Part shown: one piece after another, positions 7,287 through 59,833 of the stretch
Position numbering within the stretch: position 1 is the stretch's first letter
Layout of the letters: every line of letters starts with the position of its first letter
NCBI GenBank assembly: GCA_021851875.1
Contig: JAJZQI010000005.1
Coordinates: 69,813-133,812, forward strand
Direction: 5' to 3'
Length of the DNA: 64,000 nt
Source: Pseudomonadota bacterium
Lineage (GTDB): Bacteria; Pseudomonadota; Gammaproteobacteria; Burkholderiales; JAJZQI01
Program-made: the position numbers and the translations under genes
The notes under the pieces: generated by a model
Told to the model about the DNA's origin: nothing
What the model saw: the letters and a program-made list of their open reading frames with translations, nothing else
Database searches by the model: none

Positions 7287-7291
7287 ACTGT

Positions 7292-8686: not shown

Positions 8687-8925
8687 TGGCGCTGCATTTT
8701 GTGGTCTATGGCAGACCGTATTGCCATCTTTGCCATGATTTGGTGGCGGGTTTACAGCAGCTGCAAACCCGCCATGAATTCAGCTTTGACGTAGTGGACA
8801 TCGATCAGGATGCTCAGCTGGAAGAGCGCTTCGGCACACTGATTCCGGTGGTGGAATACAACGGCAAAATCCTCTGCAACTATTTCCTCGACGAGACGGC
8901 CATTGTTTCGGCGCTCGCCGGCTGA
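8686..8925 (+). CDS. Glutaredoxin-like protein (DUF836 type)
   Basis: ATG overlaps the protease stop; YGRPYCHLC CxxC motif, IPV. Confidence 0.85.
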   Translation: MALHFVVYGRPYCHLCHDLVAGLQQLQTRHEFSFDVVDIDQDAQLEERFGTLIPVVEYNGKILCNYFLDETAIVSALAG

Positions 8926-9000
8926 TTCCTTTGGCAGGACATAATAGGCTGTTATCCCGCAATCAGCTAGAATAGCGGTTTTGTACGTTCCGCAGCCTTT

Positions 9001-10791: not shown

Positions 10792-10808
10792 ATATAAAGT
10801 TCAACACT

Positions 10809-11612: not shown

Positions 11613-11634
11613 CAATACCGACGGAGGAGAGCAA

Positions 11635-11994
11635 ATGAAATCCAAACAACAGGGCATGACGCTGATCAGTCTGGTCATCGGCGGTGGTTTGCTGGTTTTT
11701 GTCAGCATCATCGTTATGAAAATGGTGCCAAGCTACATTGAGTATTTTGATGTGAAAAAGGTACTCCAAGCCATGCGTCAGGACCCGGCCGTTTCATCCA
11801 TGCCGCCGGCTGAAATTCGTGCGGCTTTCGATAAACGCGCCGATATCGACAACATCAAGTCGGTGTCGGGCCGAGATTTGACTTTGAATAACGATTCGAT
11901 TTCAGCTGACTGGGAGGCCAAATCCTATTTGATGGGTAACGTCAGCGTTGTTATGGAGTTCCATGCCTCCACCAAAATCAGTTCGGGACAATAA
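11635..11994 (+). CDS. DUF4845 family protein
   Basis: Pilin-like QQGMTLI N-terminus, VPSYIEY; conserved position between lepB and rnc; GGAGGA RBS. Confidence 0.85.
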
Positions 11995-11999
11995 ACTTA

Positions 12000-12695
12000 A
12001 TGCTGCATCCCCCTGGAGGTGCGCCGCTTGAACGGCTGCTGGAAAAACTGGGCTATCGCTTCAAGCGGCAGGAGTTGTTGCAGCAAGCTCTGACGCATCG
12101 CAGTTTCGGCACGCCACACAACGAGCGGCTCGAGTTTCTGGGGGACAGTGTGCTCAACTGCGTCATCGCCACAGAGCTGTATCGCCGTTTTCCCCGCCTG
12201 CCGGAGGGTGATCTCAGCCGCGCCAGAGCCCAATTGGTGAAGCAAGACACCTTGCATGAAGTGGCTCAGACATTGCGGCTTGGCGAATATATCCAGTTGG
12301 GCGAAGGCGAGTTGCGCAGCGGCGGACACAGACGCCCATCCATTCTGGCCGACGCAGTTGAAGCCATTATTGGCGCTATTTATCTCGACAAGGATTTTGT
12401 CGCTGCGGCAGATGTCGTCGTGCGTCTTTATCAAACCCTGCTGGACGCCATCGATCCGCGCACGCTGGGCAAGGATGCCAAGACTCGCCTGCAGGAATAC
12501 CTGCAGGCACACAAAAAACCGCTTCCCATTTATTCTGTTATCGAAGTCAGCGGCGAAGCTCATGCTCAGCAGTTTGTCGTTGATTGTTTACTCGAAGCGG
12601 ATGACCTGCGCGTTTCCGGCACTGGCAGCAGTCGCCGGCAAGCCGAGCAGGAAGCCGCCAAGATTGCCTTTGAGAAATTGACGCAACAGTCATGA
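12000..12695 (+). CDS. rnc: Ribonuclease III
   Basis: [18 protein letters not shown], ds[14 protein letters not shown]. Confidence 0.98.
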
Positions 12696-42070: not shown

Positions 42071-42682
42071 TCATTCACCCACCACATCGGCGCCGGCAGG
42101 CGGGGTAAAACTGAACAATTTGCTGTCCTGCTTTGCCGGCATGGTCGTCTTGCCGAATGTCAGATAAGTCGTCTGACCGAAATTATCGAACAGTCTCATG
42201 GCAACCACCTTGCCTTTTTCCAGACCCAGCTGAACCTTGCTGAAACCGGCGTCCTGTGATTTCGGGCTGGCAGCCACCCAGCTCAGACCGTCTTTTTCGC
42301 CGCTGTCGCGCAGCACGAATTGCTGCTCCAACGTACCCTCACCCGCCAGCAAGGCTGCCGGCGAGCTGCCCAGGGCATTACCCATTTTACGCACGGTGAC
42401 CTGATTGAGATCCGGGTCGAACAGCCATACCCGTTCTCCATCGCCCACGATCAACTGGTCAAACGGCTGCTGCACGACCCAGCGGAATTTTCCCGGCCGA
42501 GAGATGGCAAACCACCCGCTGCTTTGCTGCACGATATGCCCGTTCTTGTCATATACCGTCTGGTTGAATTCGCCTTTCAGACGCGGGGTACTGTTCAAAA
42601 ATGTTTTCAATGCTTCCACGTTGCCCGCCTGGGCCAGCCCGGCCCATAAAAGCACGCAAAGAAACACGATTTTTTTCAGCAT
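42071..42682 (-). CDS. lolA: Outer membrane lipoprotein chaperone LolA
   Basis: Signal peptide, FNQTV, RPGKFRW, DPDLNQVT, FTPPAGADV. Confidence 0.95.
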   Translation of the reverse strand: MLKKIVFLCVLLWAGLAQAGNVEALKTFLNSTPRLKGEFNQTVYDKNGHIVQQSSGWFAISRPGKFRWVVQQPFDQLIVGDGERVWLFDPDLNQVTVRKMGNALGSSPAALLAGEGTLEQQFVLRDSGEKDGLSWVAASPKSQDAGFSKVQLGLEKGKVVAMRLFDNFGQTTYLTFGKTTMPAKQDSKLFSFTPPAGADVVGE

Positions 42683-44994
42683 TATTCCTCACCTCGTGAC
42701 GGTACCAGCACTTCGCGATTGCCATTGCTTTGCATGGGTGACACGAGCCCGGCATTTTCCATTTGTTCAATCAATCTGGCCGCGCGGTTGTAACCGATGC
42801 GCAACTGCCGCTGCACCAGGGAAATGGATGCGCGGCGCGATTTCAGCACCACGTTGACAGCTTCGTCATACAGCGGATCGGCCTCGGCATCGCTGTCGCC
42901 GCCGCCGAATCCCTCTTCAGAGGAAACCTCGGGATTATCCAAGATGCCTTCGACATAATTCGGTTGACCCATTTGCTTAAGGTGTTCAACCACCCGGTGC
43001 ACCTCGTCATCGGAAACGAAAGCGCCGTGTACACGTTGCGGCAAGCCCGTGCCGGGCGGCAGATAAAGCATGTCACCCTGCCCCAGCAAAGCTTCCGCCC
43101 CCATCTGATCCAGAATGGTACGGGAGTCGATTTTGCTGGACACCTGGAAAGCGATACGAGTGGGTATGTTCGCCTTGATCAAACCGGTGATCACATCGAC
43201 CGATGGACGCTGAGTTGCCAGGATCAAATGAATTCCCGAGGCGCGCGCCTTTTGTGCCAGACGGGCGATCAATTCCTCCACCTTCTTGCCTGCGACCATC
43301 ATGAGGTCGGCAAGTTCGTCGATGATGACCACGATGAACGGCAGCTCCTCGAGCGGCTCCGGGTTTTCCGGTGTCAAAGAGAACGGATTCTTCAGGCGCT
43401 CGCCCGCCTTTTCGGCTTCTTTCAGCTTCTGATTGAAACCGCTGATATTGCGCACGCCCAGGGCGGCCATCAGGCGGTAGCGCTTCTCCATTTCCGCCAC
43501 GCACCAGGAAAGCGCATAGGCAGCCTGCTTCATATCCGTCACCACGGGGGCGAGCAGATGCGGAATCCCTTCATAAACAGAAAGTTCCAGCATCTTTGGA
43601 TCGACCAGGATCAGTCGCACGTCTGCCGGCGATGACTTGTACAGCAGACTGAGAATCATGGCGTTGATGGCCACCGATTTGCCCGAACCGGTCGTGCCGG
43701 CGACCAGCACATGCGGCATTTTGGCCAGGTCGGCCACAATGGGATTGCCGCTGATGTCCTTGCCCATGGCCATGGTCAATGGCGAGACATTGTCGTTGTA
43801 CACGCGCGACCCGACAATCTCCGTCAGCCGCACGATCTGGCGTTTGGGGTTGGGAATTTCCAGGCCCATGCAGGATTTGCCCGGAATGGTTTCCACCACA
43901 CGAATACTGACCACGGACATGGCCCGCGCCAGATCGCGCACGAGATTGACGATCTGGCTGCCCTTCACACCGATGGCGGGTTCGATTTCGTAACGGGTAA
44001 TCACCGGCCCCGGATGGGCCGACAGGACTTTCACCTCCACGCCAAAATCCAGCAGCTTGCGCTCGATCAGGCGTGAATTGAATTCCAGTGTTTCGGCGCT
44101 TACCAGTTCAACGGCGGCGTCCGCCGGGTCCAGCAAACTGAGCGGCGGCAACGGGGAGTCAGGCATGTCGGCAAACAAGGGAACCTGCCTTTCCTTATCC
44201 ACGCGCTCGGACTGCTCAACCTCCACCACGGGCATTTCGATTTTGATCGGCTCGTGTTCGACAATGCGACGGCGCTCTTCCGAAACGACTTCCTCGCGCT
44301 GCTGCTGGGCGATTTCCCCGGCTTTCAGATCCTGCCGCTTCTGCATCTGCCCGACGGCCCAGGCATAGGCGGACTCCACCCAAATGCCGACGCGCTCGGA
44401 TACATTCAACCAGGAAAGTCCGGTAAACAGGCTCACGCTGACTGCAATCAGGAAGATCAGCAGCAGCGTAGCGCCGGTAAAGCCCAGCAGCTGCAACAAT
44501 AATTTGCTGACAAGCGCACCGCTTATACCGCCGGGCGCCAGGGGCAAAGGAACGGTCAGGCTGTACAGGCGCAATGCCTCAAGAGCGCTGGAGGCCAGCA
44601 GCAACACCAGGAAACCGGCCGAGGCGATTAACAGCGACCGGCGGTCGGCCAAATCCGGCGCATCGATCCGCCGGTAGCCCCACCAGATCACATACAGCAG
44701 GAACACCAATATCAGATAGGTGGACAACCCGAACACATACAGCAGGACATCCGCGATCCAGGCGCCTACGACGCCCCCGACGTTGTGAATGACAGCATTG
44801 TCGACGCTGTGCGACCAGGAGGAATCGGCGTGATCATAACTCAGCAGAATGAGCGCCACATAAACTGACACGACCACCAGTGCCAGCCACCAGGCCTCGC
44901 TGAGCAAACGAGACAGCTTGGGCGAAAACGGGCGGGCAGGCTTGGCGCTGCCGGTATTTGCGGAGGACGGGTTGTTGGGTGAGCGCGGCATCAT
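42682..44994 (-). CDS. ftsK: DNA translocase FtsK
   Basis: N-terminal TMs, [30 protein letters not shown], gamma domain [10 protein letters not shown]. Confidence 0.98.
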
Positions 44995-45312: not shown

Positions 45313-45388
45313 TCCCCGATAGCTCAGTCGGTAGAGCGCCGGACTGTTAATCCGTAGGTCCCTGGTTCGAGCCCAGGTCGGGGAGCCA
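45313..45388 (+). tRNA. tRNA-Asn(GTT)
   Basis: TCCCCGATAGCTCAG...GACTGTTAATC...GGTTCGAGCCC...GGGGAGCCA, 76 nt. Confidence 0.97.
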
Positions 45389-45435
45389 AAAGTTTCTTCA
45401 AGCAGTGCTTTGTGCTGCTTACACAAGTTGTATGC

Positions 45436-45512
45436 GGAGCGGTAGTTCAGTTGGTTAGAATACCGGCCTGTCACGCCGGGGGTCGCGGGTTCGAGTCCCG
45501 TCCGCTCCGCCA
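45436..45512 (+). tRNA. tRNA-Asp(GTC)
   Basis: GGAGCGGTAGTTCAG...CCTGTCACG...GGTTCGAGTCCC...CGCCA, 77 nt. Confidence 0.98.
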
Positions 45513-45569
45513 ACACTGCATACCCCACTTCCCTGACTGACTTCGCAATAGACCGATTGGAAGAAGATC

Positions 45570-46106
45570 ATGGAACAATTCAGCCGCAACACCTCAACAG
45601 CCAGCACCGACAACCCCATTGCGCTATTGCGTGCCTGCCACGTCAAAATCGCCGATCACACTGCCCTGCTCGAACGGATTCGCCAGCACATTGACCTACA
45701 CGGCGTGGATGACGCGGCGCAAGAAGCCATCGAAAAAGTCATCCGCTATTTCGTTCAGGCCGCTCCCTTGCACCATCAGGACGAGGAAGTCGATCTTTTC
45801 CCCCTGCTTGCTGCAGCGGCCAAGGCGGAAGATTACGAAGACGTGCTCGATGCGCTGGCATTTTTGCAAGAGGACCATATCAAGCTCGACACCCTGTGGC
45901 AAAGCATGCTGTCGCAACTGCAAACCATTCTGGCGCAGCGATCCGGCAATATCGACCCCGCCACGTTACGCCTGTTTGCCGCCGCCTATCAGCGACATAT
46001 CGAAGCCGAAAACAGCCTTATTCTCCCCTACGCACAAGCGACCCTTGATCAGGCCACACTGGCGCGCCTCGGTCAGTCGATGAAGCTGCGCCGCAGCCCC
46101 GGCTAG
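45570..46106 (+). CDS. Hemerythrin/HHE cation-binding domain protein
   Basis: LRACH, YF...HHQDEEVDLFP, EDH, Y..HIEAEN. Confidence 0.88.
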   Translation: MEQFSRNTSTASTDNPIALLRACHVKIADHTALLERIRQHIDLHGVDDAAQEAIEKVIRYFVQAAPLHHQDEEVDLFPLLAAAAKAEDYEDVLDALAFLQEDHIKLDTLWQSMLSQLQTILAQRSGNIDPATLRLFAAAYQRHIEAENSLILPYAQATLDQATLARLGQSMKLRRSPG

Positions 46107-46195: not shown

Positions 46196-46229
46196 TGGTC
46201 ATATTTCTGTAATATTACCTCATTAGAAT
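46196..46229 (+). promoter_or_regulatory. Pho box and -10 element of pstS
   Basis: TGGTCAT-ATTT-CTGTAAT (46196-46213), 10-nt spacer, TAGAAT (46224-46229). Confidence 0.8.
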
Positions 46230-46271: not shown

Positions 46272-47309
46272 ATGAAACTGAGCTTTACACGCACCCTAAT
46301 CGCCGCTGCAATCCTGAGCGCAAGCGCAACCGCCTTTGCAGGTGACATCACCGGTGCAGGTGCAACCTTCCCGTATCCAATTTACGCCAAATGGGCTGAA
46401 GCTTACAAAGCAAAAACCGGTATTGGCATGAACTACCAATCCATCGGTTCCGGCGGCGGCATCAAGCAAATCAAAGCTAAAACCGTTGATTTCGGCGCCT
46501 CCGACAAGCCGCTGAACCCGCAGGAACAAGCCGAATCCGGCCTGACCCAGTTTCCGACCGTGATGGGCGCTATCGTTCCGGTGGTTAACCTGGACGGCAT
46601 CGCCGACAGCCAACTGAAACTGAGCGGCCCGGTTCTGGCTGACATCTTCCTGGGCAAAATCACCAAGTGGAACGACCCCGCCATCGCCAAAATGAACGCT
46701 GGAGTTAAACTGCCGGCCACCGACATCACCGTGGTACACCGTGCCGACGGTTCCGGTACCACCTTCAACTTCACCAACTACCTGTCCAAGGTTAGCCCGG
46801 AATGGAAAACCAAAGTCGGTAGCGACGCTTCCGTTGCATGGCCGGTTGGTACCGGCGGTAAAGGTAACGAAGGTGTGGCCAACTTCGTGAAGCAGATCAA
46901 AGGTTCCATTGGCTATGTGGAAGCTGCTTACGCCAAGCAGAACAAGATCACCATGACCCAGATGATGAACCATGACGGCGTCTTCGTTAAAGCCACTGAA
47001 GAAACCTTCAAGGCTGCTGCTGCCGGCGCTGACTGGGAACACGCTCCTGGCTTCTACGAAATTCTGACCGACGAGCCGGGCAAAAACAGCTGGCCGATCG
47101 CTGCTGCCACCTTCATTCTGATGCACAAGCAACAGGGCGATGCCGCACGTGCTGCTGAAGTTCTGAAATTCTTCGCCTGGGCATATGCCAACGGCGACGA
47201 CATGGCTCTGAGCCTGGACTACATCCCGATGCCGGCAAGCGTTGTTAAGAAAATCGAAGCTGCCTGGAAAGCCAATATCAAAACCATGGACGGCAAGGCT
47301 GTTTACTAA
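46272..47309 (+). CDS. pstS: Phosphate ABC transporter substrate-binding protein
   Basis: ITGAGATFPYP, YQSIGSGGG, DFGASD, HRADGSGTT, GKGNEGV. Confidence 0.98.
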   Translation: MKLSFTRTLIAAAILSASATAFAGDITGAGATFPYPIYAKWAEAYKAKTGIGMNYQSIGSGGGIKQIKAKTVDFGASDKPLNPQEQAESGLTQFPTVMGAIVPVVNLDGIADSQLKLSGPVLADIFLGKITKWNDPAIAKMNAGVKLPATDITVVHRADGSGTTFNFTNYLSKVSPEWKTKVGSDASVAWPVGTGGKGNEGVANFVKQIKGSIGYVEAAYAKQNKITMTQMMNHDGVFVKATEETFKAAAAGADWEHAPGFYEILTDEPGKNSWPIAAATFILMHKQQGDAARAAEVLKFFAWAYANGDDMALSLDYIPMPASVVKKIEAAWKANIKTMDGKAVY

Positions 47310-47331
47310 TATCAGTCCTGCTTGACTCTTG

Positions 47332-47368
47332 TGGCCGGGCTGGCCTTCAAAGCTCGGCCATTTTTATT
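47332..47368 (+). terminator. Stem-loop after pstS (terminator or mRNA stabiliser)
   Basis: TGGCCGGGCT...AGCTCGGCCA followed by TTTTTATT. Confidence 0.7.
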
Positions 47369-47467
47369 GGCAATGCTTAATTTGCTTAACTTTTGCGCGT
47401 AACAATAGGCTGATAACAGTTATAATTACTGATTGTCACTTGGCCCGCCGGAACACAGAAAAAGCTC

Positions 47468-48430
47468 ATGTCAAAAGAAACCCCGCCAATATTTGCCAAA
47501 AAACAGCTCCTTATTGATGCGCTGTTTCGACATACCACCCGCTTTTTCGCCTTTCTCGTTTTCGCCCTGCTTGCAGGCATTATTCTGTCTCTGATTATCG
47601 GCAGCATGCCCTCGATCAAGGCTTATGGTCTCCATTTTATTGTCGATGACACCTGGAACCCGGTCACCGAGAAATTCGGTGCACTCACTCCCATCATCGG
47701 CACGCTGGTAACCTCGTTTATCGCTTTGCTGATTGGCGTGCCCATCAGCTTTGGCATCGCATTGTTTTTGACCGAACTCTCTCCACGTTGGCTGCGTCGC
47801 CCGTTGGGTATTGCCATCGAGCTCCTGGCCGGCATCCCCAGCATTATTTACGGCATGTGGGGCCTGTTCGTATTTGCGCCGGCATTTGCCGAACATGTAC
47901 AGCCCTGGCTAAAGGATCACCTGTCTGAACTGCCCTTCGTCGGGATATTGGTACAAGGCCCGCCGATGGGTATCGGTATGCTCACTGCCGGCCTGATTCT
48001 GGCCATTATGGTCATCCCCTTTATTGCTTCGGTGATGCGCGACGTATTCCAGATCGTTCCGGCATTGCTTAAAGAATCGGCTTACGGCCTGGGCGCCACC
48101 ACCTGGGAAGTGGTTTGGCATATTGTGCTGCCCTACACCAAGATCGGCGTCGTCGGCGGCATTATGCTCGGCCTGGGGCGTGCTCTCGGCGAAACCATGG
48201 CTGTTACTTTCGTCATCGGCAATGCGCACAATCTGACCGCTTCCCTCTTCATGCCCGGCAACAGTATCGCTTCCTCGCTGGCCAACGAGTTCACCGAGGC
48301 TGACGGCGAACTGTATACCTCGGCGTTGATCGAATTGGGTCTGCTGCTGTTTGCCATTACATTTATTGTTCTTTCGCTCTCCAAAATCCTCTTGCAGCAA
48401 CTTCGCAAGAACGAAGGACGTGAATCCTGA
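47468..48430 (+). CDS. pstC: Phosphate ABC transporter permease PstC
   Basis: [35 protein letters not shown]. Confidence 0.97.
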
Positions 48431-48444
48431 CCGGAACCCTAATC

Positions 48445-49290
48445 ATGCTGAGCATCTACCGCCGTCGCCAATTCGTGAATTATTTAAATCTGACAGGTTC
48501 CATGCTGACCATGGCTTTTGGTCTATTCTGGTTGATCTGGATCCTGTCGACCCTGTTCGTCAAGGGATTCGATTCTTTGGATCTAGACCTGTTTCGCAAA
48601 ATGACCCCGCCGCCAGGCAGCGATGGCGGTCTGCTGAATGCCATTTTCGGCAGTGCTCTCATGTCTGTCTTGGCAACATTGATTGGTACTCCTGTCGGCA
48701 TACTGGCCGGCACTTATCTGGCCGAATTCGGCCACCGCGGCTGGCTGGCGCCGACCACCCGTTTCATCAATGACATTCTCCTGTCAGCCCCTTCCATCGT
48801 GATCGGCCTATTCATTTATGAAATGTACGTCACCAAGGTGGGCCATTTTTCCGGCTGGGGCGGCACATTTGCTCTGGCACTGCTGGTCATTCCTGTAGTG
48901 GTGCGTACTACGGAAGACATGTTGCGACTAGTGCCGAACAGCCTGCGCGAAGCGGCTGCCGCCCTGGGGGCACCGCAGTGGAAAGTGATCATGCAGATTA
49001 CCTGGCGCGCCTCCAAAGCCGGCATGATGACCGGCGTACTGCTGGCAGTCGCCCGTATCAGCGGCGAGACCGCCCCCCTGCTCTTTACTGCGCTGAACAA
49101 CCAGTTCTGGAGCAGCGATATGAACGCCCCCATGGCGAATCTGCCGGTTGTGATCTTCCAGTTTGCCATGAGCCCCTTCGAGGACTGGCAAAATCTGGCC
49201 TGGGCCGGCGCCCTGCTGATCACGATTGGCGTATTGGGGCTGAATATCATTGCCCGCTCCATGTTCAAACAGAGTCAAATCTCTCAATAA
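48445..49290 (+). CDS. pstA: Phosphate ABC transporter permease PstA
   Basis: [39 protein letters not shown]. Confidence 0.97.
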
Positions 49291-49303
49291 GGTCAAGTCA
49301 TTC

Positions 49304-50077
49304 ATGAATCAGACGAACAGTGTGCCGAACAAGATCCAGGTAAAAAATCTCAATTTTTACTATGGCAACTTTCACGGCCTGAAAAACATTAACCTTGATC
49401 TGAAAGAAAAGAAAGTTACCGCCTTTATCGGCCCGTCCGGCTGCGGCAAATCCACTCTGCTGCGTACCTTTAACCGCATGTACGATCTCTATCCGGGCCA
49501 GCGCGCCGAAGGCGAGATTGTCATGGCTGGCAAGAACATTCTGGATCGCAGCCAGGACGTGAACATGCTGCGTGCCAAAATCGGCATGGTGTTCCAGAAA
49601 CCGACGCCCTTCCCCATGTCAATTCACGACAACGTGGCGTTTGGCGTGAAATTGTATGAGCGCCTGAGCCGCGGCGAAATGGCCGACCGTGTTGAATGGG
49701 CCTTGCGCAAAGCCGCTCTGTGGGATGAAGTCAAGGACAAGCTCAACCAGAGCGGTACCAGCCTGTCCGGCGGTCAGCAGCAGCGCCTGTGTATCGCGCG
49801 CGGTATTGCGGTCAAGCCCGAAGTGCTGCTGCTGGACGAGCCCACTTCCGCGCTGGATCCAATTTCGACCGCGCGCATTGAAGAACTGATCTTCGAGCTG
49901 AAGGAAGACTTCACCATTCTGATCGTGACCCACAACATGCAGCAAGCCGCGCGCGTATCGGATTACACGGCTTACATGTATTTGGGCGAACTGATCGAGT
50001 TCGGCGATACCGACACTATTTTCACCACGCCCAAACAGAAAGCAACGGAAGATTACATCACCGGCAAGTTCGGCTGA
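49304..50077 (+). CDS. pstB: Phosphate ABC transporter ATP-binding protein
   Basis: [41 protein letters not shown]. Confidence 0.98.
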
Positions 50078-50147: not shown

Positions 50148-51125
50148 TCAAGTCCGCTGAGCGGAGAATGACTTGAAGAAGCCCACAATCCGGCTGGCCA
50201 GCGGATTTTCAGTTGTTTCTTTGCTCACTTCCACTTCGTGCTTTTTCACCAGACTTGGGGCAACCTGGAACGACCAGTAGCTTTCCAAGGCCCCCTCAAT
50301 TGCACGCAAAAGCAATTTGGCGCGGATGGGTTTGGGAATGCAGCGGTATACCTGCGCTTCATTGATCAGCGTGACCAACATTGATGCATCGTAAAAGGTC
50401 GTCAGCAAAATAGAGACAGTGCGCGGATTGAAGCGTTTGAGCAGCTTGATCAGCGTGGTGACATCAGCCGTGCCAATGCGAACTTCCGACACGACCACGG
50501 CGATTTCATGTTGCCGCAGAGCCTCGAGCACATCCTCAATTGTAGCCGCATGATGGATGACCAAGCCTGCCGATATGTGTTCGTGCACCAATTCCCGGAC
50601 CTGTACAGCAGACAGCGGGTCTTCATCGATCACCAGAATATGGTCCGTCACAGTGGAATTTGCAGATGGTGCCGGCAGAGTCATATCGCCCAGACTCAAG
50701 GCAATGTCGACAGCACTGGCTACGGTAGCCTTGATCGCGTCAGCATCCCACGGCTTGTTAATGAAGCGGAATACTTCACCCTCATTGATGGAGCCCAGCG
50801 TTGAATCGAGATCGGAGTAGCCGGTAAGCAGAAGACGCATGGTATTGGGGACAATGTATTTAGCTCGGCGGAGTAACTCCACCCCTGTCATGCCGGGCAT
50901 CCGCTGATCACTGATCAGGACATGAATCTTTTCCTGCTGCAGTATCTGCAGTGCCTCGTTGCCGTCAGTCGTTACCCTGACGTTGTATGTTTGCGCGAAC
51001 AGCATGCGCAAGCTGCGCAGGATCCGTTCTTCATCATCGACGCAAAGAATGGTGGGACGGTTGACGGCGACAGTGCTTGTCACCGGATTAAGCTTGCGCT
51101 GTGTCGAGCTCGGGCTTGTTTGCAT
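50148..51125 (-). CDS. Response regulator with tandem receiver domains and no evident output domain (start uncertain)
   Basis: REC1: LCVDDE, SDQRMP, LTGY, NKPW. REC2 degenerate: LVIDED, VSEVRI, PKP. Confidence 0.85.
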   Translation of the reverse strand: MQTSPSSTQRKLNPVTSTVAVNRPTILCVDDEERILRSLRMLFAQTYNVRVTTDGNEALQILQQEKIHVLISDQRMPGMTGVELLRRAKYIVPNTMRLLLTGYSDLDSTLGSINEGEVFRFINKPWDADAIKATVASAVDIALSLGDMTLPAPSANSTVTDHILVIDEDPLSAVQVRELVHEHISAGLVIHHAATIEDVLEALRQHEIAVVVSEVRIGTADVTTLIKLLKRFNPRTVSILLTTFYDASMLVTLINEAQVYRCIPKPIRAKLLLRAIEGALESYWSFQVAPSLVKKHEVEVSKETTENPLASRIVGFFKSFSAQRT

Positions 51126-52413
51126 GGCGGCTATCCTTCGGATGAGGCAAGGCAACGATGAAACGGGTGCCTTTTCCCACTTCGGAGGCAACCCGTATGA
51201 ATCCCTTATGGCTTTCGATAATCTTGAAGACAATGGATAAACCCAGACCGGTACCTTCTCCGACCGGTTTGGTGGTAAAGAATGGATCGAAAATTTTTTG
51301 CAGATTCTCTTTTGAAATGCCTTTGCCGGTGTCCTGCACACTGGCATACACGTAACGTTCATCGGCCCAGGTGCGGATGAGGATTTTTCCATTGCCATCC
51401 ATTGCCTGTGCGGCATTGGTCAACAGATTGAGAAAAACCTGGTTGATTTGCGAAGGCGAGCATTTAACGGCGGGAATCTCACCGTATTGCTTGATCAGTT
51501 GGACCTTGTTCTTCAATACGTTCTTGGCGATGACCAGCGTGCTTTCAATGGTCTGGTTGAGGCTCACCTCGTCAACAGCGGCCTGATCCAGCCGGCTGAA
51601 GTTTTTCAGATTCAGCACGATTTCGCTGATCTGATCAACGCCGAACAGGGTATCGCCGAACAGGTTGTCGACTTCCTCCGCCGGATACACAGACCAGAAA
51701 TCATTGCGCTGACGGTCAATCTCTCCCAGATAGCGTACGACAGCCGTCTCCTCCGCTTCTCCGCCCATCAGCAAAGCCAGCAGTTCGTCGTAACTGGCGA
51801 CCAGCCCCTTCAGTTGCGCAAACACATCCTGCGCCAGGCTGACATTGTTTTTCACGTAACCCAGCGGCGTATTGATCTCGTGCGCCACGCCAGCGACCAT
51901 CTGCCCCAGGGAAGCCATTTTTTCCGACTGGATCAGTTGCGACTGGGAGGCTTGCAATTCACGATAGGCACGGGTGATTTCCTCACTTTGCCGCGTGAGC
52001 TTGCCCTCCATCACCTTCAGCAGGTCCACCACGTGTCCGATGCCGGAATACTGCCCGTCGCGCGTGAGAATGAAATCCTCGGTAATGGGGAATTTGATAT
52101 TGCTGGTCACATAACGGCTGATCTGCTCCATGGGCTGTTTCATGTCCACAACCACCGCCTTGCGGTTCATGAACTGCGTCACGCTTTTTTTCCCATACAG
52201 CTCGCGCCCGTACATCGACATGTAGATCTTCTGCATCTCGCTGCGGCTGATCACGCCGATAGGCCGGCCCGCATCCACCACCGGCAGGCACAGAAAACGC
52301 TCATAGTCATCATGAAGCAGCAATTCGCTGACATCATCAACGGTATGGCTGGGGGTTACAGGTTCCAGCTGTACAAGCAGGGATTCGACTTCACTCACAT
52401 CAACACCAGACAA
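51088..52413 (-). CDS. Cytoplasmic NtrB-class histidine kinase with an N-terminal CBS pair
   Basis: LPVVDAGRPIGVISR (CBS), EKMASLGQMVAGVAHEINTP, QVFLNLLTNA, DTGKGI, FFTTKPVGEGTGLGL; no TM. Confidence 0.92.
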   Translation of the reverse strand: MSGVDVSEVESLLVQLEPVTPSHTVDDVSELLLHDDYERFLCLPVVDAGRPIGVISRSEMQKIYMSMYGRELYGKKSVTQFMNRKAVVVDMKQPMEQISRYVTSNIKFPITEDFILTRDGQYSGIGHVVDLLKVMEGKLTRQSEEITRAYRELQASQSQLIQSEKMASLGQMVAGVAHEINTPLGYVKNNVSLAQDVFAQLKGLVASYDELLALLMGGEAEETAVVRYLGEIDRQRNDFWSVYPAEEVDNLFGDTLFGVDQISEIVLNLKNFSRLDQAAVDEVSLNQTIESTLVIAKNVLKNKVQLIKQYGEIPAVKCSPSQINQVFLNLLTNAAQAMDGNGKILIRTWADERYVYASVQDTGKGISKENLQKIFDPFFTTKPVGEGTGLGLSIVFKIIESHKGFIRVASEVGKGTRFIVALPHPKDSRHANKPELDTAQA

Positions 52414-52504: not shown

Positions 52505-52554
52505 TTAAGGAAGTCCTGAACAAGTTGCCGCCGACTTGTTCAGGACTTCCTTAA
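52505..52554. mobile_element. IS5-type ends-only miniature element (42 bp) with flanking TTAA
   Basis: TTAA-GGAAGTCCTGAACAAGT-TGCCGCCG-ACTTGTTCAGGACTTCC-TTAA; perfect 17-bp inverted repeats resembling IS5 ends. Confidence 0.7.
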
Positions 52555-52583: not shown

Positions 52584-52892
52584 TTATCGCAGATATTGCT
52601 GCAGTTTGGCCAGAGTTTCGTCAGCCGAGTCATGCATCACTTTCAGGTAGATGTCGAAGCGCCTCGAACTGTAAACCGTATCTATAACGCAACACACCAC
52701 CTTTATGGGGCTGTTGTTGGCCTGCGGAAATGCGAATATCAGCTTGCAGTCTGTCTCACGCGGCAGACTTATATCGCACGAGACGACCATTTTGGAAAGG
52801 TTGAGCTGTTTTAAATGACCACTCAAACTCTGTGCCGGTGTCACCAGCTTGACCGGGAAACGCGCCCCCGGGCGAATCTGTCCGATAGACAT
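52584..52892 (-). CDS. Stand-alone PilZ-like protein
   Basis: RPGARFP (RxxxR), NLS (partial D/NxSxxG), beta-rich, C-terminal LAKLQQYL helix. Confidence 0.65.
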   Translation of the reverse strand: MSIGQIRPGARFPVKLVTPAQSLSGHLKQLNLSKMVVSCDISLPRETDCKLIFAFPQANNSPIKVVCCVIDTVYSSRRFDIYLKVMHDSADETLAKLQQYLR

Positions 52893-52926
52893 GTAATGGC
52901 ATCTTTCGGGAGGGAGTCTTCACAGC

Positions 52927-52960
52927 CCCGATGATGTCTTCTGCAACAGACATCATCGGG
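52927..52960. repeat. 13-bp stem hairpin between the CheY-like and PilZ-like genes
   Basis: CCCGATGATGTCT-N8-AGACATCATCGGG. Confidence 0.75.
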
Positions 52961-52984
52961 AGTTTCGTCTGGCACAAATGCCAC

Positions 52985-53350
52985 TCAGCTCGCCAGCTTC
53001 TTGAATGTTTCCAGTACTGCCTCGCCTTTGAACGGCTTGACGATCCAACCCTTGATGCCTGCCGCCTTGCCGCGTTCCTTCATGTTCGGACTGCTTTCCG
53101 TGGTCAGCATGATGACATTCACGCTGCTGTTACCCAACTCGCTGCGGATTTTCTCAACCATGGTCAAGCCATCCATATTGGGCATATTCACGTCGCTCAC
53201 CACCAGCTTGATGCCCGGGTTCGCTTGCAATTTTGTCAGCCCGTCCTTGCCATCCACGGCTGTTACCACATCAAGACCATTTTTGCTCAGAAAACCGGAA
53301 ACCTCATCACGTACTGTGCTCGAGTCATCCACAACGAGAATCTTTGCCAT
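52985..53350 (-). CDS. CheY-like single-domain response regulator
   Basis: ILVVDDS, SDVNMPNMDG, MLTTE, WIVKPF. Confidence 0.95.
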   Translation of the reverse strand: MAKILVVDDSSTVRDEVSGFLSKNGLDVVTAVDGKDGLTKLQANPGIKLVVSDVNMPNMDGLTMVEKIRSELGNSSVNVIMLTTESSPNMKERGKAAGIKGWIVKPFKGEAVLETFKKLAS

Positions 53351-53382
53351 AATTTTGCTCCTGCTAAAAATATAAGATTTGA

Positions 53383-54339
53383 TTAAAAGAGTTCCAATTC
53401 GCCCGCATCCACCAAGCCATCGACTTCCTGCTCGATCTCGCGAAACTTTTCAGGTGCCCAGCGCAGATTGAAAACAAAACGCTGGTAAATTTTCATGCTC
53501 CATGTGCGCTCCTCGTTTGTCAGCGTGTACAAGAAGCACAACTGGGGATTTTCAGTACCGAAAGAAATATATTTATGCTTGTGATTGACGACCAGCGGGA
53601 CTTCAACATTGACGCCCGGAATAACGGATTCGTCGCCGATAAAGCGATTTTTGAATGCCCCCCATATGAGATTGGTCACCTCACCGAGCAAGCTGTTTAC
53701 ATTGCGGAAATTCACCTCGGTATGGATTTTTTCCGACTCCCCCAGCCAATGCAGTACGGGCATCTCTTCTGTCTGCAAGGTCATGTATCCGCGGCACCAC
53801 GAGCTTTCCAGCGGAATCAGGCTGTATACCTCGCCGAAAATCAGGCGGTCGCGCACAATGAACGGCGTCTCCCAGCTGACGGTCAGATTCTTGAACTGAC
53901 TTGCCAGGGCCGTTTCGGTTATCTCTGAAATACCGCGGACCAATGCATTGGGATACACAAGGCTGAAAATGTATTCCTGAATAGCCTGCTGCAGGCCTTG
54001 TGAATCAGCGACGCTGAAGGTCGCGCAACATATTCTTTTCAGTGTTTCAGGCAATGAACTCAAGTCGAACTCGTCCTCCACGCGGAGGATAATGGGTAAT
54101 TCAGGGCGGAATGCATGAATTCTGGTTGCCAGCTCTACGGTATCGCCTTCACTGCCGCCGTAGCTGTAGGAAAGGATGATCGCCCCCAGTTCGAGGCTGG
54201 ATTTCAACACGGTAAAGAGTCGGTTTTTACGCACCTTGAGAGGCACCAGGGAGTGCTCATCGGCAAACTGCTTGATAAACGCCAGTTGTTTTAAATCATT
54301 TTCCAGGACAAGAATCTTGCTGGTGAGTTGTTCTGTCAT
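53383..54339 (-). CDS. Pseudo-receiver plus CheX-like phosphatase domain protein
   Basis: N-terminal KILVLEND...PELPIILR; C-terminal LGEVTNLIWG (ExxN), VEVP; ends GELELF. Confidence 0.7.
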   Translation of the reverse strand: MTEQLTSKILVLENDLKQLAFIKQFADEHSLVPLKVRKNRLFTVLKSSLELGAIILSYSYGGSEGDTVELATRIHAFRPELPIILRVEDEFDLSSLPETLKRICCATFSVADSQGLQQAIQEYIFSLVYPNALVRGISEITETALASQFKNLTVSWETPFIVRDRLIFGEVYSLIPLESSWCRGYMTLQTEEMPVLHWLGESEKIHTEVNFRNVNSLLGEVTNLIWGAFKNRFIGDESVIPGVNVEVPLVVNHKHKYISFGTENPQLCFLYTLTNEERTWSMKIYQRFVFNLRWAPEKFREIEQEVDGLVDAGELELF

Positions 54340-54359
54340 TGATATATACCCGGTTCACA

Positions 54360-54896
54360 TCAGAATAATTCGAGTTCTCCCCCGGCAACCTGTTCGGCCG
54401 AGGAAAGATCAATTGCAAAATCCAGTGGTGTATTGGCCGTAACACACAAGCTTGCCTGCAGGCCGACTCCACCATTGACGGTGATGTCATAACTCGTTAA
54501 CAGTGTGGGATTCAGGCTTTGCAAGTAGTGCGCACTGGAGGTCTTCAATGTATACGGTGTAGACATGCCCAGATAGTCGAATTGGTTGCCCATGTGCCGG
54601 TTGAACTCGCCTCCGCACAGGTTGACGATTTCGGCAAAGACTTCTTCTATCTGTTGTCCGCCTTTGCCGAAATAGCCATGCATAGCGGCATTATCGGCAA
54701 CGTAAAATATAAGCATGGTGCGGAACATACAGGAGCTGATCGTCAGTACCTGCATGAATTTTTGCTTGGCGTGCAATTGCGGCAAGCAGCCCAAGGAGTT
54801 CACATGGACGGTATCGCCGGCATTTTGGGCGATACCGTTTTTGACTGACAGAACAAATGCCTCTTCCAGCGCGTGTTGTGCACGTGCGGAAATCAT
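54360..54896 (-). CDS. CheX-like protein
   Basis: [10 protein letters not shown] (ExxN), LGMSTP; ends GELELF. Confidence 0.6.
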
Positions 54897-55669
54897 TGCG
54901 CCCGCCTTTCAATCTGGCTGGCCAGGTTGTTGAGCTGGGCTTCTATTGAAGCCAGAGCCGCCATGATCATCTTTCCGCCTGCCTGAATGTCCTGAAAAGT
55001 CGAGGTAGTTGTCAGATCATTCTTGTCCAGACTTTCCCCATAGTTTTTGGACAGCACCTCCGAGCGATTGGCCAACATCCTGACTTCGTCAGCCACCACA
55101 GCAAACCCTCTGCCCGATTCACCGGCCCGCGCCGCCTCGATGGAAGCATTCAGAGCGAGAATAACGACCTGCTTGACGATGGAGGCAAATTCCTCGTTCT
55201 TGAAATGCATACCCTTGTTCTGATCCATCAGGTGCGACATACGTTCATGCCAGCGTTCAAACAAGAGACTGACATTCTTGAGACGCGCCAATTCCTGTGC
55301 AACCAGGGTCAGTTCACTGCGTATCTTGCCCTGCGCACGATTGGAATCGTCCTGCACCTTGCCGAGCACTGACTGATGTGATGCCTGCGCTTCATCACAC
55401 TGTGTTTCCAGCTGATGCAGCTGACGCATCAGCTCCTGCAGTTGCTGTTCTGCGACGTGCAGACTGGCAGCTCGGCTGGACAGCTCTTCCTGCAGGTTTT
55501 GCCGATCCAGCTGTAATTTTTTGACGTCATTGTCAGACTGTGTAAGGCGCTGATTGGCTTCATTGCGCACAAAGTCCAGCCGTTTGTCGTAATATTTTCG
55601 GGTGAGAAAAAAGGCCGAAATGCCGCCCAGAACGGCGGCAACGGCAAATGTAATAATCAGGATTGTCAT
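54893..55669 (-). CDS. Truncated MCP: one TM, coiled coil and signalling hairpin tip only
   Basis: [31 protein letters not shown]; 258 aa, no sensor or HAMP domain. Confidence 0.88.
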
Positions 55670-55704
55670 GGTATTGCCTGCGTGGTTATGAACTGACGTT
55701 GTGC

Positions 55705-58026
55705 TCAGATAACCATATAAGACTCGGGCAAGGTGATAATGGTGGAGAAACTGCGGAAGGCGTGCCCAACGTTGTCGTCTTCGAATTTTAGCTTGATATC
55801 GCCCCCTTCACGACGAATGAACGCTCGCACCGCATCCATGCCCACGCCGCGGCCGGAGATGTCACTTACCTGCTCTGCCGTTGACAGCCCGGATGCAAAG
55901 ACTTGTTCAGCAATATCCTCGTCGGTGTGATCGCTTTCGCCGGTAAACAGGCCGGTCTGCAGTGCTTTGGCGCGAATACGTTCCAGCGCCAGCCCCTTGC
56001 CATCATCTTTTAGCTGAATAACCAGCTTTCCCTCGTCACGGAACATGTCGAGCCGGATGTGTCCTGCGGTCGGTTTGCCCTTTTGTGCCCGCTCGTCAGG
56101 CTGCTCGATGCCATGGTCGATGGCGTTGCGATACAGGTGCATAAAGGCATTGCGCAGGATGTCGCTCACCTGGTTGCGCAAGCGGATGCCATTATCGCTG
56201 ATGGAGGTTACCGGTTCGTCCTTGCCCAGTTCTCTGGCCACCGAGGGCAATGATTGGATAATCGGGTCCAGCACATCATGAATACTGCTGGTTCCCAGGC
56301 GCCCCAACTGCTCGCGCACGGAGCGCAGCTTATCGAGCAAAATGTCCTGACGCTCTTCTACCGGCGGCATGTCAGCCAGGTTGTCGCACAGCTCCTTGAT
56401 GAAGGTACGCTCAACCATGAGATATTTCTCGGCGTTGCCACGACGTCCCGGACCTTTGCGGCCCAGCTTGTTGTCGTTTACATCTTCATATTCATCCAGC
56501 AGCGTACCGATTTCGGTCAACTGGGTAAGCAGCAGTTCCCGATCGGCAACAGCACTGGGGTCTTTGCGCAGGTTGTCGTATGTCTGTTCGGCTTCGTGCA
56601 CACTGTGCGTAAGCAACTGCAGTCCATAGGTCCGGGCATTGCCCTTGATGGTGTGCATATTGCGAAACAGCACTGTCAGCACATCGGCATCAAACACATT
56701 CGACTCAACAAGGTACCTGTTCTCTTGCAGGAAGGTGCGTGAACCCTCGACAAATGCGTGGAATTTTTCCTGGCTCACCGCAATGATCTGGCGAATCATT
56801 TCCAGTTCGCGCTTCTGATGTGCCGCCTCTGCTTCAATTTCCCGCAAATGAGTAATATCACGAATGCTCAGCATGATTTTCTCAATATTCTCATTCTCGT
56901 CGCAGATGGGGCTCCAGTGGAGCGCCAGATACTGGTGCGCTCCCTCGGCGCGCTTTCTTTCAATTTCCTGCGGCAGCAAATGAGCGTTGAAATCGAAGTT
57001 CATACGCTCTTCGCCGATTGAAGAATCAAACACGGCTGCTATTTGCGCCAGAGCATCGGCACCCTCTGTCGAACCGGAGAAAATGAAGTCCAAAGCGTTC
57101 GCCCCGGCAATCTGCGGCGTTTCATAGATTGTTTCCAGATAGGCCGAATACTCCGGATGGATGGTTCCATCCTGCTGGATGGTAAGGACGCCTTCAGGGA
57201 GATTCTGCAACATGCTGTTGATATCAGCCGTTTTCTCCTTGAGTCGCTCGGAACCGTCCTGAATTTTTTCGATCATGAGATTGAACGCCCGCATGGAGCG
57301 CCCGAGCTCATCCTCGCTGGTCACCGGCAAACGACGGGAAAAATCCTGTGTAGAGGCAACCTCGGTCATCATTTGCTGCATTCTCGACATCGGGCGGATC
57401 ACCTGCCGATACAGCAAGACTCCCATGACGCCCAAAACAATCAGTGAAATCAGACTGACTATGGAAATGGCCGATACGGTCTGTTTCAGATTCGCATTCA
57501 GTTGCGCAATCGCTTCGTCTTTACTGCGATTTTTCTGAATACGCAGCGTTTCGATGATTTGCTCAATGTTGCTCTGATATTCTGCGGCATTTGCCGCGTA
57601 ATTGGCTTCTGCCAGCTGATCCTTGCCCTGCAGCTTGAATTGAACAGTGCTGTCTACTGCCGCATAATAGTCAGCCAGCGTTTCGTTCAGCTGGGTGACA
57701 AGCCCCTTTTGAGCCTCACTATCCGCTTCTTTGGACTGGGCTGCCAGGCTCTGCTGCAACGTATTTTTCTGTTCTGCAAGTCGATTTGCCAGTTTCTGGG
57801 CCGCATCCAGATCCGGAGCAGCCAAAATGGCGCGGGTCGTGAGCAGCACGTCTTTGAGTTTGGAAAGCATGTCGGACGAGGCCAGCGCACTGGGCACCAC
57901 GCCTTCTGTCACACTTCGAACCTCACTCGAGTTCTTTTGCGATTGCCAGATCGAATAGCCTCCTACGAGGCCCAAGCCAAGCAATGTGAGCATGACAAGC
58001 AGAAAAATACGCTGACGAATGGACAT
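55705..58026 (-). CDS. Membrane-bound CheA-like kinase (TM-4HB-TM-HAMP-PAS-like-Hpt-HATPase) lacking a CheW domain
   Basis: HAMP RPM...[11 protein letters not shown]; Hpt [13 protein letters not shown]; CheA-type [39 protein letters not shown]; ends right after the HATPase. Confidence 0.88.
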
Positions 58027-58067
58027 ACCTTGTTTCCGTTAAATATTAGTTAGCATTAATTTTCTAA

Positions 58068-58101
58068 ATATTACAAACATCTCGTGACTGTTTCGTGACA
58101 A
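58068..58101 (-). promoter_or_regulatory. Pho box and -10 element driving the CheA-like operon
   Basis: Minus strand TTGTCAC-GAAA-CAGTCAC (58101-58084), 10-nt spacer, TAATAT (58073-58068). Confidence 0.7.
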
Positions 58102-58195: not shown

Positions 58196-59833
58196 ATGAA
58201 TATGAAACAGTTAAGCATTAAAACAAGCTTGTTCATCGGCGCGATCATCACAGCGCTGGTTCTGGCTGTTCTGGCCGTGGAGAACCTGTATGTTCTGCAT
58301 CGCGGCGAGGAATCCATGGATACGGTGTATAACCGTGCGGTTGCACCCTCATCACTGCTGATCGACATGGAACGGCAACTCAGCCGCGCACGATTCAATA
58401 TGGCCGCCACCCAGTTCGACAAGGTGCCGTTTACCGATGCCAAGAATCAACTTGTGCAACTGATGGCCAACTTGCCCAGCCAGTGGAAGCAATTCAAGCA
58501 GTTGAAAAACGGTGACCTGACAGCAGATGAAACCAAACTGATCGCCGGCATTGACAAGGCCATGATCGAATTGCCCAATGTGGTCAAAATGCTGTCGGTG
58601 TCGTACGACGATCATGACAAAACCATGACGCGTTCCGTATTGGATGATGATTGGCCGGGCGTTGAAGATGGCGTGCTGAAGCCGATCACCCAATTGATCG
58701 CATTGCAAAAGGAAAACATCATTGCACAGCTGCACGCCACACAACAGACCAACCACACCATGCAACAGGTCGTACTGGCGAGCGTGATACTGGGTGGCTT
58801 GTTTGCATTGCTATCCACCTTGTTCACCTACCGGATGACGCGCAACATGGATCAGGGTATTCGCCATTTGAAAGAGGCGTTCGGCCGCATTTCCAACGGC
58901 GACCTGACCACTGAAGTCGCTTACGGCGGCAAGAACGAGTTTGGCGAAATGGCCCAGCACCTCGACAGCATGGTCAAAAATCTGCGCAACATGGTCAGCA
59001 AGATGGATTCTGCCGCGTCCGTTGTCTCGCAGGAAGCCAGCAATCTGTCCAAGGCTGTCACCCTGATCGAACAAAGCTCGCACACCCAATCGGATGCGGC
59101 GAGTGAAACAGCCGCAGCGGTGCAGCAGATTTCCGTCAGCATTTCGCAGGTATCCAGCAACGCCCAAATCTCCTTGCACAGCTCACTCAACGGCAGCGAG
59201 CTGTGCCAGACCGGGAGCAGCGTTGTAGGCCGTACCGTGGAAGAAATGCGGCAGATTTCCGCCACGGTTGAAGAAACCGCCCAGTTGATTCGCACGCTGC
59301 ATCAACGCTCGGTTGATATCGATCAGATCAGCAATACCATCAAGGATATTGCCGGCCAGACCAACTTGCTGGCGCTCAACGCCGCCATTGAAGCGGCCCG
59401 CGCCGGCGAGCAGGGCCGCGGTTTTGCAGTTGTGGCGGACGAAGTGCGCAAACTGGCCGAGCGCACCGGCAAGGCCACGCAGGAAATCCAGGACATGACC
59501 AGCTCGATCCAGAGCGAAATGGCCACTGCGCTTAATATCATCGAGGCCAATCGCGAACGGGTGGAACATGGTGTGATCCTCACCCGCCAAGCCGATCAAT
59601 CGCTCAGCGATATCGGCCGGGGTACGCGCGACACGGCCCAGAGCGTGGAAGAAATTGCCCGCGCCACAGCCGAGCAGCATGTCAGCAGCCAGGATATCGC
59701 CCGCAACGTCGAGCGTATTTCCTCCATGGCGGAACAGAATGCCCGGGAAATTTCCGCCCTCGGCCAGTCTTCCCGCATCCTGAAGGAAATGGCCGAGAAC
59801 TTCCAGCTGGATATCGCGCAGTTCCGTATTTGA
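58196..59833 (+). CDS. Methyl-accepting chemotaxis protein (4HB sensor, HAMP)
   Basis: Two TMs, GDLT...[50 protein letters not shown]. Confidence 0.96.

Follow-up and report, generated by a model that had tools for sequence, protein, structure and literature searches.

A conserved, putatively phosphate-regulated operon encoding a sensor-fused CheA-type kinase without P5, a receptor tip and CheX-type partners

The closest described relatives of the system reported here are the canonical core of CheA, CheW and methyl-accepting chemotaxis proteins (MCPs) of E. coli and T. maritima, the CheX and CheZ phosphatases, and the phosphate taxis receptors of Pseudomonas. CheZ is a phosphatase that tethers itself to CheY through a short C-terminal peptide, disordered and acidic-hydrophobic, whose last residue is aromatic. 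CtpH and CtpL of Pseudomonas are Pho-regulated phosphate taxis receptors, full MCPs with a periplasmic helical-bundle sensor that feed the normal CheA/CheW pathway. Pseudomonas MCPs are also mentioned as implicated in phosphate sensing in the cited part of a B. glumae study (PMC13700237). In the cited parts of a CheA survey, CheA is defined by Hpt, dimerization, HATPase_c and CheW domains and recognized by HATPase_c plus CheW, the CheW domain is present in 100% of CheA sequences, and CheA is described as having no sensor domain (PMC10542144/PMC10782961). Here we describe six genes, named K, M, X1, X2, Y and Z, that form an operon in a 64,000-nucleotide stretch of a Burkholderiales genome (positions 69,813 to 133,812 of contig JAJZQI010000005.1, assembly GCA_021851875.1; hereafter the window). 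We conclude that this module is a real, conserved and uncharacterized variant of chemosensory signaling, Pho-regulated as judged from its promoter, and that it is common in Burkholderia.

The module shares with the canonical core a P1 domain with an HxIKG motif, P4, an MCP tip, a single-domain CheY and a dedicated phosphatase. It differs in that K brings a transmembrane sensor, HAMP and PAS domains of its own and lacks P2 and P5, that the receptor is cut to an anchored tip, and that no CheW, CheR or CheB is linked to it. CheA3 and CheA4 of Cereibacter sphaeroides likewise depart from the five-domain CheA plan, with kinase functions redistributed, according to the cited part of the survey (PMC10542144); both keep CheW/P5 and work in a receptor array, whereas K has no such domain and carries a sensor. 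Because the survey requires both HATPase_c and CheW, K-like proteins fall outside it by definition. The module and CtpH/CtpL both combine chemotaxis-type sensing by a periplasmic helical bundle with induction by phosphate limitation, which is predicted in our case, but here a whole separate kinase-regulator-phosphatase module would be induced. The six genes, in window coordinates, are as follows.

55705..58026, minus strand: K, sensor kinase, 773 aa
54893..55669, minus strand: M, anchored MCP tip, 258 aa
54360..54896, minus strand: X1, CheX-fold protein, 178 aa
53383..54339, minus strand: X2, pseudo-receiver plus CheX, 318 aa
52985..53350, minus strand: Y, CheY-like single-domain response regulator, by receiver domain match
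52584..52892, minus strand: Z, small PilZ-fold protein, by Atlas features and structure

The six open reading frames (ORFs) run in the order K-M-X1-X2-Y-Z from 58026 to 52584, with spacings of 35, -4, 20, 32 and 92 bases. A first-pass annotation, made from the letters of the DNA, had proposed six tightly packed minus-strand ORFs, and all six lie where it had put them. It had also read K as an MCP-style input joined to a CheA Hpt and ATPase without P5 or CheW, X1 and X2 as CheX-like ExxN proteins, Y as a CheY and the sixth protein as PilZ-like. These identities are borne out below: K by Pfam, NCBIfam and superposition of its AlphaFold model on CheA P4; X1 by its fold and invariant E, N and P; X2 by Pfam, with an additional receiver-like domain; Y by its receiver domain, best PDB matches to CheY and retained catalytic residues; and Z, as regards its fold, by Atlas features and structure. 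Its description of M as a tip-only MCP needs amending: only the MCPsignal tip finds a match, but the protein also has an N-terminal membrane anchor.

Our analysis supports the view that K joins a sensor of receptor type to a CheA core that lacks P5. Pfam assigned 4HB_MCP_1 to residues 1–170, HAMP to 204–257, Hpt to 433–502 and HATPase_c to 622–747, with no match to the CheW domain (PF01584), and the NCBIfam CheA models covered only the Hpt and kinase parts, ending at model position 526 of 666. Hydrophobic segments at residues ∼3–27 and ∼180–211 frame the periplasmic bundle as two transmembrane segments. The AlphaFold model of K, built from a 20-row alignment with a mean predicted local distance difference test score (pLDDT) of 78.9, shows a four-helix bundle, HAMP, a PAS fold (residues 279–390, pLDDT ∼88–92), a P1 bundle (392–520), a disordered linker (521–539), short helices at 540–551 and 560–575, and an alpha/beta P4 domain that extends to the end of the chain. 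The linker between P1 and the P4 region is a disordered GRKGPGRRG stretch, and there is no P2.

Structural matches to K were sought with Foldseek and given a second look with VIA-align. Residues 577–769 of the model superimpose on P4 of T. maritima CheA (1i5c, residues 353–540) with a Z-score of 19.7 and a root-mean-square deviation (rmsd) of 2.8 Å over 178 aligned residues at 31% identity; residues 415–517 match P1 of Salmonella CheA (1i5n; Z-score 14.6, rmsd 1.8 Å), and residues 38–179 match the four-helix-bundle (4HB) ligand-binding domain of MCP2201 (Z-score 17). P1 and P4 also align to E. coli CheA by sequence (phmmer E = 4.6e-34), with HTIKG of K opposite HSIKG. His458, within HTIKG, and the residues of the N, G1 and G2 boxes are invariant among 20 K homologues. 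The last residue of K aligns to residues 540–541 of T. maritima CheA, the P4/P5 boundary; because K stops at this junction, its missing P5 is a matter of protein length and not of search sensitivity. Measured against the features of a CheA, K thus has the P1/Hpt and a CheA-type P4, lacks P5 and is not free of a sensor. It is not a HisKA kinase either, as the phospho-accepting His sits in an Hpt bundle and no HisKA family domain was matched in the protein.

M has a membrane anchor at its N-terminus, followed by a coiled-coil stalk and a short hairpin tip of MCP type, with ∼60 residues past the turn. Pfam matched MCPsignal (PF00015) to residues 162–243 (E = 2.1e-18), covering only profile positions 43–131 of 172; the hairpin tip of an MCP is therefore present, and full-length methylation helices and a ligand-binding input are absent. 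For the conservation analysis, 28 of the 46 M ORFs were aligned and those with odd starts or lengths were left out. A hydrophobic 19-mer was found in 25 of these 28 orthologues, a 14-residue tip core is invariant in all of them, and two family-specific, invariant motifs (TFERWH and one of 19 residues) flank the canonical tip. Over 45 residues, the tip is 69% identical to another MCP tip.

X1 has no match in Pfam even at E = 10 and has 192 relatives among 1.84 billion representative proteins. Its model (pLDDT 93.5) adopts the CheX fold, with 1xko matched at E = 1.4e-7 and probability 1.0, and 3h2d and 6vpw also at probability 1.0. Compared with the described CheX proteins (1xko of T. maritima, the CheX-CheY3 complex 3hzh of B. 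burgdorferi and 6vpw of V. vulnificus), X1 has the same fold at a Foldseek probability of 1.0 and TM-scores of 0.52–0.67. X2 was assigned CheX by Pfam at residues 171–270 (E = 5.1e-9). Both proteins keep the ExxN...P signature of the CheX phosphatases: E89, N92 and P114 are invariant in 76 near-full-length X1 relatives (from 150 listed), and E220, N223 and P248 are invariant in all 29 X2 ORFs that were aligned (from 43). They differ from those phosphatases in that X1 is too divergent for Pfam and that X2 adds a pseudo-receiver; this N-terminal domain (residues 1–160) is receiver-like by structure (TM-scores 0.63–0.69), and no conserved acceptor Asp was found in it in the 29-sequence alignment. 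X1 and X2 both end in GELELF. The tail motif, G[ED][LIM][ED][LMFI]F, forms the C-terminus in 59 of the 76 X1 relatives, the other 17 having near variants, and in 28 of 29 X2 relatives, and the tail of X1 is disordered in the model.

Y finds its best matches in the PDB CheY chains 4h60 and 4hnr and in the NCBIfam CheY model. Its residues D8, D9, D53, T83, W102 and K105 are invariant across 10 orthologues of 68–86% identity, as is a basic stretch in alpha4-beta5 (M90, K91, R93, G94, K95, K100, G101 and W102). Z, for which Pfam gave no match at E = 10, resembles PilZ proteins by Atlas features (0.96) and by structure (TM-scores 0.77–0.82). The first of the cyclic di-GMP (c-di-GMP) motifs, RxxxR, is present as RPGAR, and the second, (D/N)xSxxG, is incomplete, reading NLSKMV without the Gly. 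Relatives of Z were found in none of the 74 loci that carry the system (defined below). Z is thus lineage-specific and cannot define the output of the family.

Induction of the operon by phosphate limitation is a well-supported prediction, which draws on the position of a Pho box, validation on pstS and phoB, conservation among orthologues and published proteomics. Sites were scored against TGTCAY-N5-TGTCAY, the E. coli consensus, and the scoring was validated internally on pstS and phoB of the same genome, the latter identified by TIGR02154 (358.9 bits against a cut-off of 296.2). The elements concerned are listed here.

58084..58100, minus strand: Pho box TGTCAC-N5-AGTCAC of the K operon, two 11-bp-phased half-sites at the -35 position; TGTCACGAAACAGTCAC, 11/12 of the consensus
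58068..58073, minus strand: -10 hexamer TAATAT, 10 bp 3' of the Pho box, read from the sequence
46197..46213, plus strand: pstS Pho box GGTCAT-N5-TGTAAT, used as control; GGTCATATTTCTGTAAT, followed by 10 bp and TAGAAT

The cited part of a review describes the Pho box as made of direct repeats of 11 bp (PMC9306846). We defined a Pho promoter as an intergenic site that scores at least 10/12, stands 8–12 nt before TAnnnT and lies within 300 nt of the gene it precedes. Just seven promoters of the entire 2.68-Mb genome fit this grammar, namely those of pstS, phoB, the K operon, an EAL-CBS-GGDEF protein, a periplasmic binding protein, a Cache-like protein and hisG, and the K operon scores best among them at 11/12. 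Nineteen sites in the genome score at least 11/12; such a list alone is uninformative, whereas the stricter grammar is informative.

The site is conserved in relatives. In five other genomes that carry the system, 8 of 9 pstS genes have an upstream site of at least 10/12. A site of this quality is also present in 16 of 49 testable system loci, where the background of the loci themselves would predict 1.7. In 12 of the 23 orthologous operons that begin with K, a site of at least 10/12 stands 102–144 nt 5' of a K whose alignment begins at residue 1, and the site is followed by ∼11 nt and then GATAAT or CAATAAT; six more of the 23 score 9/12 at the same place. The distance 5' of K is the same in loci of Ralstonia, Burkholderia, Trinickia, Herbaspirillum and Ferrovaceae, and in L010, L014, L016, L019 and the B. 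cenocepacia locus the site upstream of K is the only one in 19–22 kb (19 kb in B. cenocepacia). At least five distinct lineages with the site remain despite kinship among the loci.

Published proteomics agree with this prediction. In the cited part of a 2026 proteome of B. glumae without phosphate, a CheX-like protein (BGL336gr_05406, 2.15) and a CheY (BGL336gr_05407, 2.30) are enriched (PMC13700237), and this adjacent pair is enriched together with PhoB and PhoR. The pair is plausibly orthologous to the module, because 79 positive Burkholderia genomes each have essentially one X2 match.

A separate observation concerns the EAL-CBS-GGDEF protein among the seven promoters. This 622-aa protein is encoded outside the window (G000:C38:55176-57105, L194 in our list) behind a promoter site, TGTCATTTTTTCGTAAC, that scores 10/12. 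It may represent a second phosphate-starvation route to c-di-GMP, one that would touch the PilZ-fold protein Z as well.

To place the module among its relatives, we defined system loci as those with a Y orthologue at least 60% identical, and genome and metagenome scans together with profile searches gave 74 of them. K and M each occur in 32 of the 34 that span at least 12 kb, X1 in 28 and X2 in 20. A tblastn search of all 74 loci (871,758 bases) for CheW/P5, CheR and CheB, with queries that included eight CheW/P5 domains of the window's own genome, gave no match in any; the queries were single sequences of that genome, so a very divergent CheW could escape them. The same search found matches in 9 of 18 canonical che loci, which had entered the collection through weaker Y matches and served as control. 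No other conserved flanking family, whether an output or a substitute for CheW, was seen among 1190 ORFs within 6 kb; the most widespread occurs in 9 of 32 loci, at varying positions. In the window's own genome (2.68 Mb, 52 contigs), a whole-genome domain search placed CheW domains on contigs C21, C38, C10 and C11 and the single CheR and single CheB both on C21, and found none of the three on C9, the contig of the window. The first-pass annotation had reported no cheW, cheR or cheB in the window and had suggested that homologous operons would lack them too, and both expectations stand. It had also placed the operon beside pstSCAB. Equivalog models confirm pstSCAB at 46272-50077 on the plus strand, but the linkage is not conserved, being found in one of the 74 loci (L158) and in the irregular L095. 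All five system genomes tested encode CheW elsewhere, with 8–39 CheW domains each.

A word-indexed search with residues 400–773 of K returned 6757 significant proteins among 8000 scored; the best 120 of these all list Hpt and HATPase_c, and none lists CheW (PF01584). The N-termini of the best 120 vary (HAMP, 4HB, 7TMR-DISM, dCache, TarH), and their source names are generic. A quick, unrooted tree of P4, whose rows were found with K-derived patterns and 19 of which ('P5 not seen') were judged by single-query tblastn, separates 42 K-family rows from 55 CheA rows of bacteria and archaea by a branch with a Shimodaira-Hasegawa-like approximate likelihood ratio test (SH-aLRT) value of 100. Isolates that carry the module include Ralstonia chuxiongensis, Herbaspirillum rhizosphaerae, Trinickia, Caballeronia, Burkholderia sp., B. 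cenocepacia, B. multivorans, B. arboris and B. stagnalis, and metagenome-assembled genomes of Methylobacter, Pseudomonadales and Ferrovaceae carry it as well. The B. cenocepacia record holds the whole operon. X2 is close to universal in the genus Burkholderia, its profile matching 79 of 95 species genomes, each positive genome having essentially one match. In an even sample of 400 genomes across the class, the X1 profile matches just 5.

The loci also vary. Gene orders include K-M-X1-X2-Y, M-X1-X2-Y-K and K-X2-Y-M-X1, and a second K-like gene adjoins the module in some carriers (L011 at 7488-9365 and 10001-12328; L019 at 6827-7378). In L095 (G324:C185, ∼8697-12336), K-M-X1 is followed by pstB-like sequence of 62% and 81% identity to PstB of the window, and no Y was detected after K-M-X1; this reflects either a rearrangement of the locus or a joint in the assembly. 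The metagenome contigs L141-L155 hold only X2-Y, with Y 61–66% identical, and K, M, X1 and a Pho box were not detected on them. On these contigs, the module may be reduced or wired differently.

The operon probably ends at Z, because this gene is followed by a 17-bp hairpin and, just past that, by a promoter-like site (52504-52477) that would serve the next gene. The two hairpins of this region are given below.

52927..52960, strand unspecified: hairpin between Y and Z, with a perfect 13-bp stem; the minus strand has no T run 3' of the stem
52509..52550, minus strand: hairpin 3' of Z, with a 17-bp stem

The Y/Z hairpin could affect RNA stability or processing and so give Z a level different from that of the core genes. 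We considered two further genes as members of the operon, those of a CBS-HisKA kinase (51088-52413) and a two-receiver regulator (50148-51416), and rejected them, as the 17-bp hairpin and the promoter-like site separate both from Z; their relatives lie near the module in just 2 of the 74 loci. The pair sits directly downstream of the operon (window 50148-52413, minus strand), the kinase being a CBS-HisKA-HATPase protein of 441 aa, and the regulator ORF, listed from 51416, probably starts near 51090. On the other side of K, a full-length MCP (4HB/TarH, HAMP and MCPsignal; 58196-59833, plus strand) is transcribed divergently. K and this MCP have in common a 169-bp intergenic region that contains the Pho box, an arrangement that is not conserved in other loci. 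Farther away, tRNA-Asn(GTT), tRNA-Asp(GTC) and an ORF for a 178-aa hemerythrin-domain protein lie just 5' of the pstS promoter (window 45313-46106), and an FtsK gene lies at 42682-44994 on the minus strand.

We consider it reasonably probable that the operon belongs to the Pho regulon and encodes a compact phosphorelay of CheA type with its own sensor. Judging from promoter grammar, conservation and proteomics, phosphate limitation would place PhoB∼P on the -35 Pho box and switch on K-M-X1-X2-Y-Z. In a dimeric membrane K, the 4HB, HAMP and PAS domains would drive the CheA-type P4 directly, as in classical sensor kinases. On sensing a periplasmic ligand, K is predicted to phosphorylate His458 of P1/Hpt through its P4 and to pass the phosphoryl group to Asp53 of Y. 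By their fold and motif, X1 and X2 would be phosphatases of CheX type and limit the lifetime of Y∼P. The GELELF tails, disordered and acidic-hydrophobic, probably serve as tethers, and the likeliest dock for them would be the alpha4-beta5 face of Y, which is basic, much as with the CheZ peptide; the tails are like that of CheZ, the phosphatase fold differs, and we infer the binding of GELELF to Y. M, an anchored tip without a sensor, most likely scaffolds or localizes the module, alone or through the cell's CheW/CheA arrays. Y∼P would act on a target encoded elsewhere, with the flagellar switch as a first guess, and Z would be a lineage-specific add-on of c-di-GMP type.

Several observations weigh against this reading. 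The P3-like hairpin of K is short (540–551 and 560–575), and P3P4 chains align from residue ∼530 at rmsd values of 8.5–9.2 Å; Pfam found no H-kinase_dim (P3) match in K, and the hairpin fits P3 by position alone. At its tip, M hardly differs from canonical MCPs. What the tails bind and which output Y drives are guesses, and the activities of the module are predictions from sequences and structure models. Many of the loci come from closely related Burkholderiaceae, and the counts overstate their independence. As for the promoter, 5 of the 23 K-first operons have no site at the expected place, a loose Pho pattern (no more than two mismatches) is not enriched in the window (6 against 13.4 expected), and the main text of the B. 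glumae paper, in its cited part, lists neither the kinase, the tip protein nor the operon (PMC13700237). Finally, none of the 26 other testable loci (M-first, with other K N-termini, or with X2-Y alone) has a site there. Because these loci show no site in place, Pho control appears to be a trait of the clade with a 4HB sensor and not of variants with other sensors or gene orders; the induction by phosphate limitation that had been proposed for the system at the outset holds up to that extent, on the Pho box, its conservation and the cited proteomics.

The phosphorelay reading can be carried further, to a CheW-independent architecture in which M and K would form a membrane complex of their own, the GELELF-tethered CheX pair would act on a dedicated CheY, and PhoB would switch on a second behavior pathway. 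We put this forward as a tentative extension with a minor share of our confidence. A complex prediction of two copies of K (410–773) with two copies of M (125–258) scored 0.00 against a mark of 0.32, which is evidence neither way. The first-pass annotation had proposed a self-contained pathway; dependence on host CheW/CheA is possible, because the M tip is near-canonical and 5 of 5 system genomes tested have CheW.

In the alternative that survives best, the tip of M would enter ordinary CheW/CheA arrays, bringing K, X1 and X2 with it or titrating CheW. Phosphate starvation would then retune the main chemotaxis pathway, and Y and the phosphatases would compete with housekeeping CheY and CheZ at the motor. 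M keeps the universal MCP tip sequence, its stalk and tip of ∼230 residues would be roughly as long as a receptor cytoplasmic domain, and CheW domains are encoded in all five system genomes tested as well as in the window's own. However, cheW is linked to the module in none of the 74 loci, the conserved family motifs beside the M tip suggest a dedicated partner, and K lacks the P5 through which it could enter an array. We regard this alternative as unlikely, though it deserves to be kept in mind.

A second alternative concerns the output. K and Y could be an ordinary two-component pair made of chemotaxis-derived parts, with M, X1 and X2 only shaping the kinetics, and the output could be c-di-GMP, surface or biofilm behavior or phosphate physiology rather than flagellar switching; we think this proposal rather improbable. 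The best solved relatives of Y, 4h60 and 4hnr, are V. cholerae CheY4, which is not known to bind FliM, and the position that would correspond to Ile95 of E. coli CheY in our own alignment is an invariant Lys in Y; we count both toward this alternative. A PilZ-fold gene ends the operon in the window, and the EAL-CBS-GGDEF gene elsewhere in the genome has a candidate Pho promoter. Yet a Z relative occurs in none of the 74 other loci, neither a c-di-GMP enzyme nor any other output gene is conserved beside the module, and fast phosphatases with a single-domain CheY mark behavioral, not transcriptional, control.

That the Pho box is fortuitous, the operon being constitutive or under another regulator and its pst neighborhood a matter of chance, is very improbable: the loose pattern of two half-sites shows no enrichment in the window, the genome has 19 sites of at least 11/12, few of them annotated, and pst adjacency is not conserved, but the promoter grammar is common to pstS and phoB among just seven such promoters, the site is kept at the same distance 5' of K across five lineages, and the no-phosphate proteomics, in the part cited, agree (PMC13700237).

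As had been supposed from the outset, we found no functional description of a CheA that is fused to a sensor, lacks P5 and is accompanied by an MCP tip and CheX proteins in the open-access literature and bioRxiv, although subscription journals could hold one. K and its relatives break both rules of the CheA survey, having no CheW-like domain and having a sensor of their own, yet they stay with a receptor tip, CheX and CheY. If the CheW-independent architecture is true, a fused sensor can drive a CheA-type kinase directly, and an MCP tip works without CheW or P5. The module is therefore a test case for the control of CheA P4, for the role of an MCP tip without CheW and for the tethering of a phosphatase to its target. 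Phosphate scarcity is a known cue for changes in virulence and motility; because the module is placed in the Pho regulon by its predicted promoter, it could link that scarcity to cell behavior and explain how the cue reaches it.

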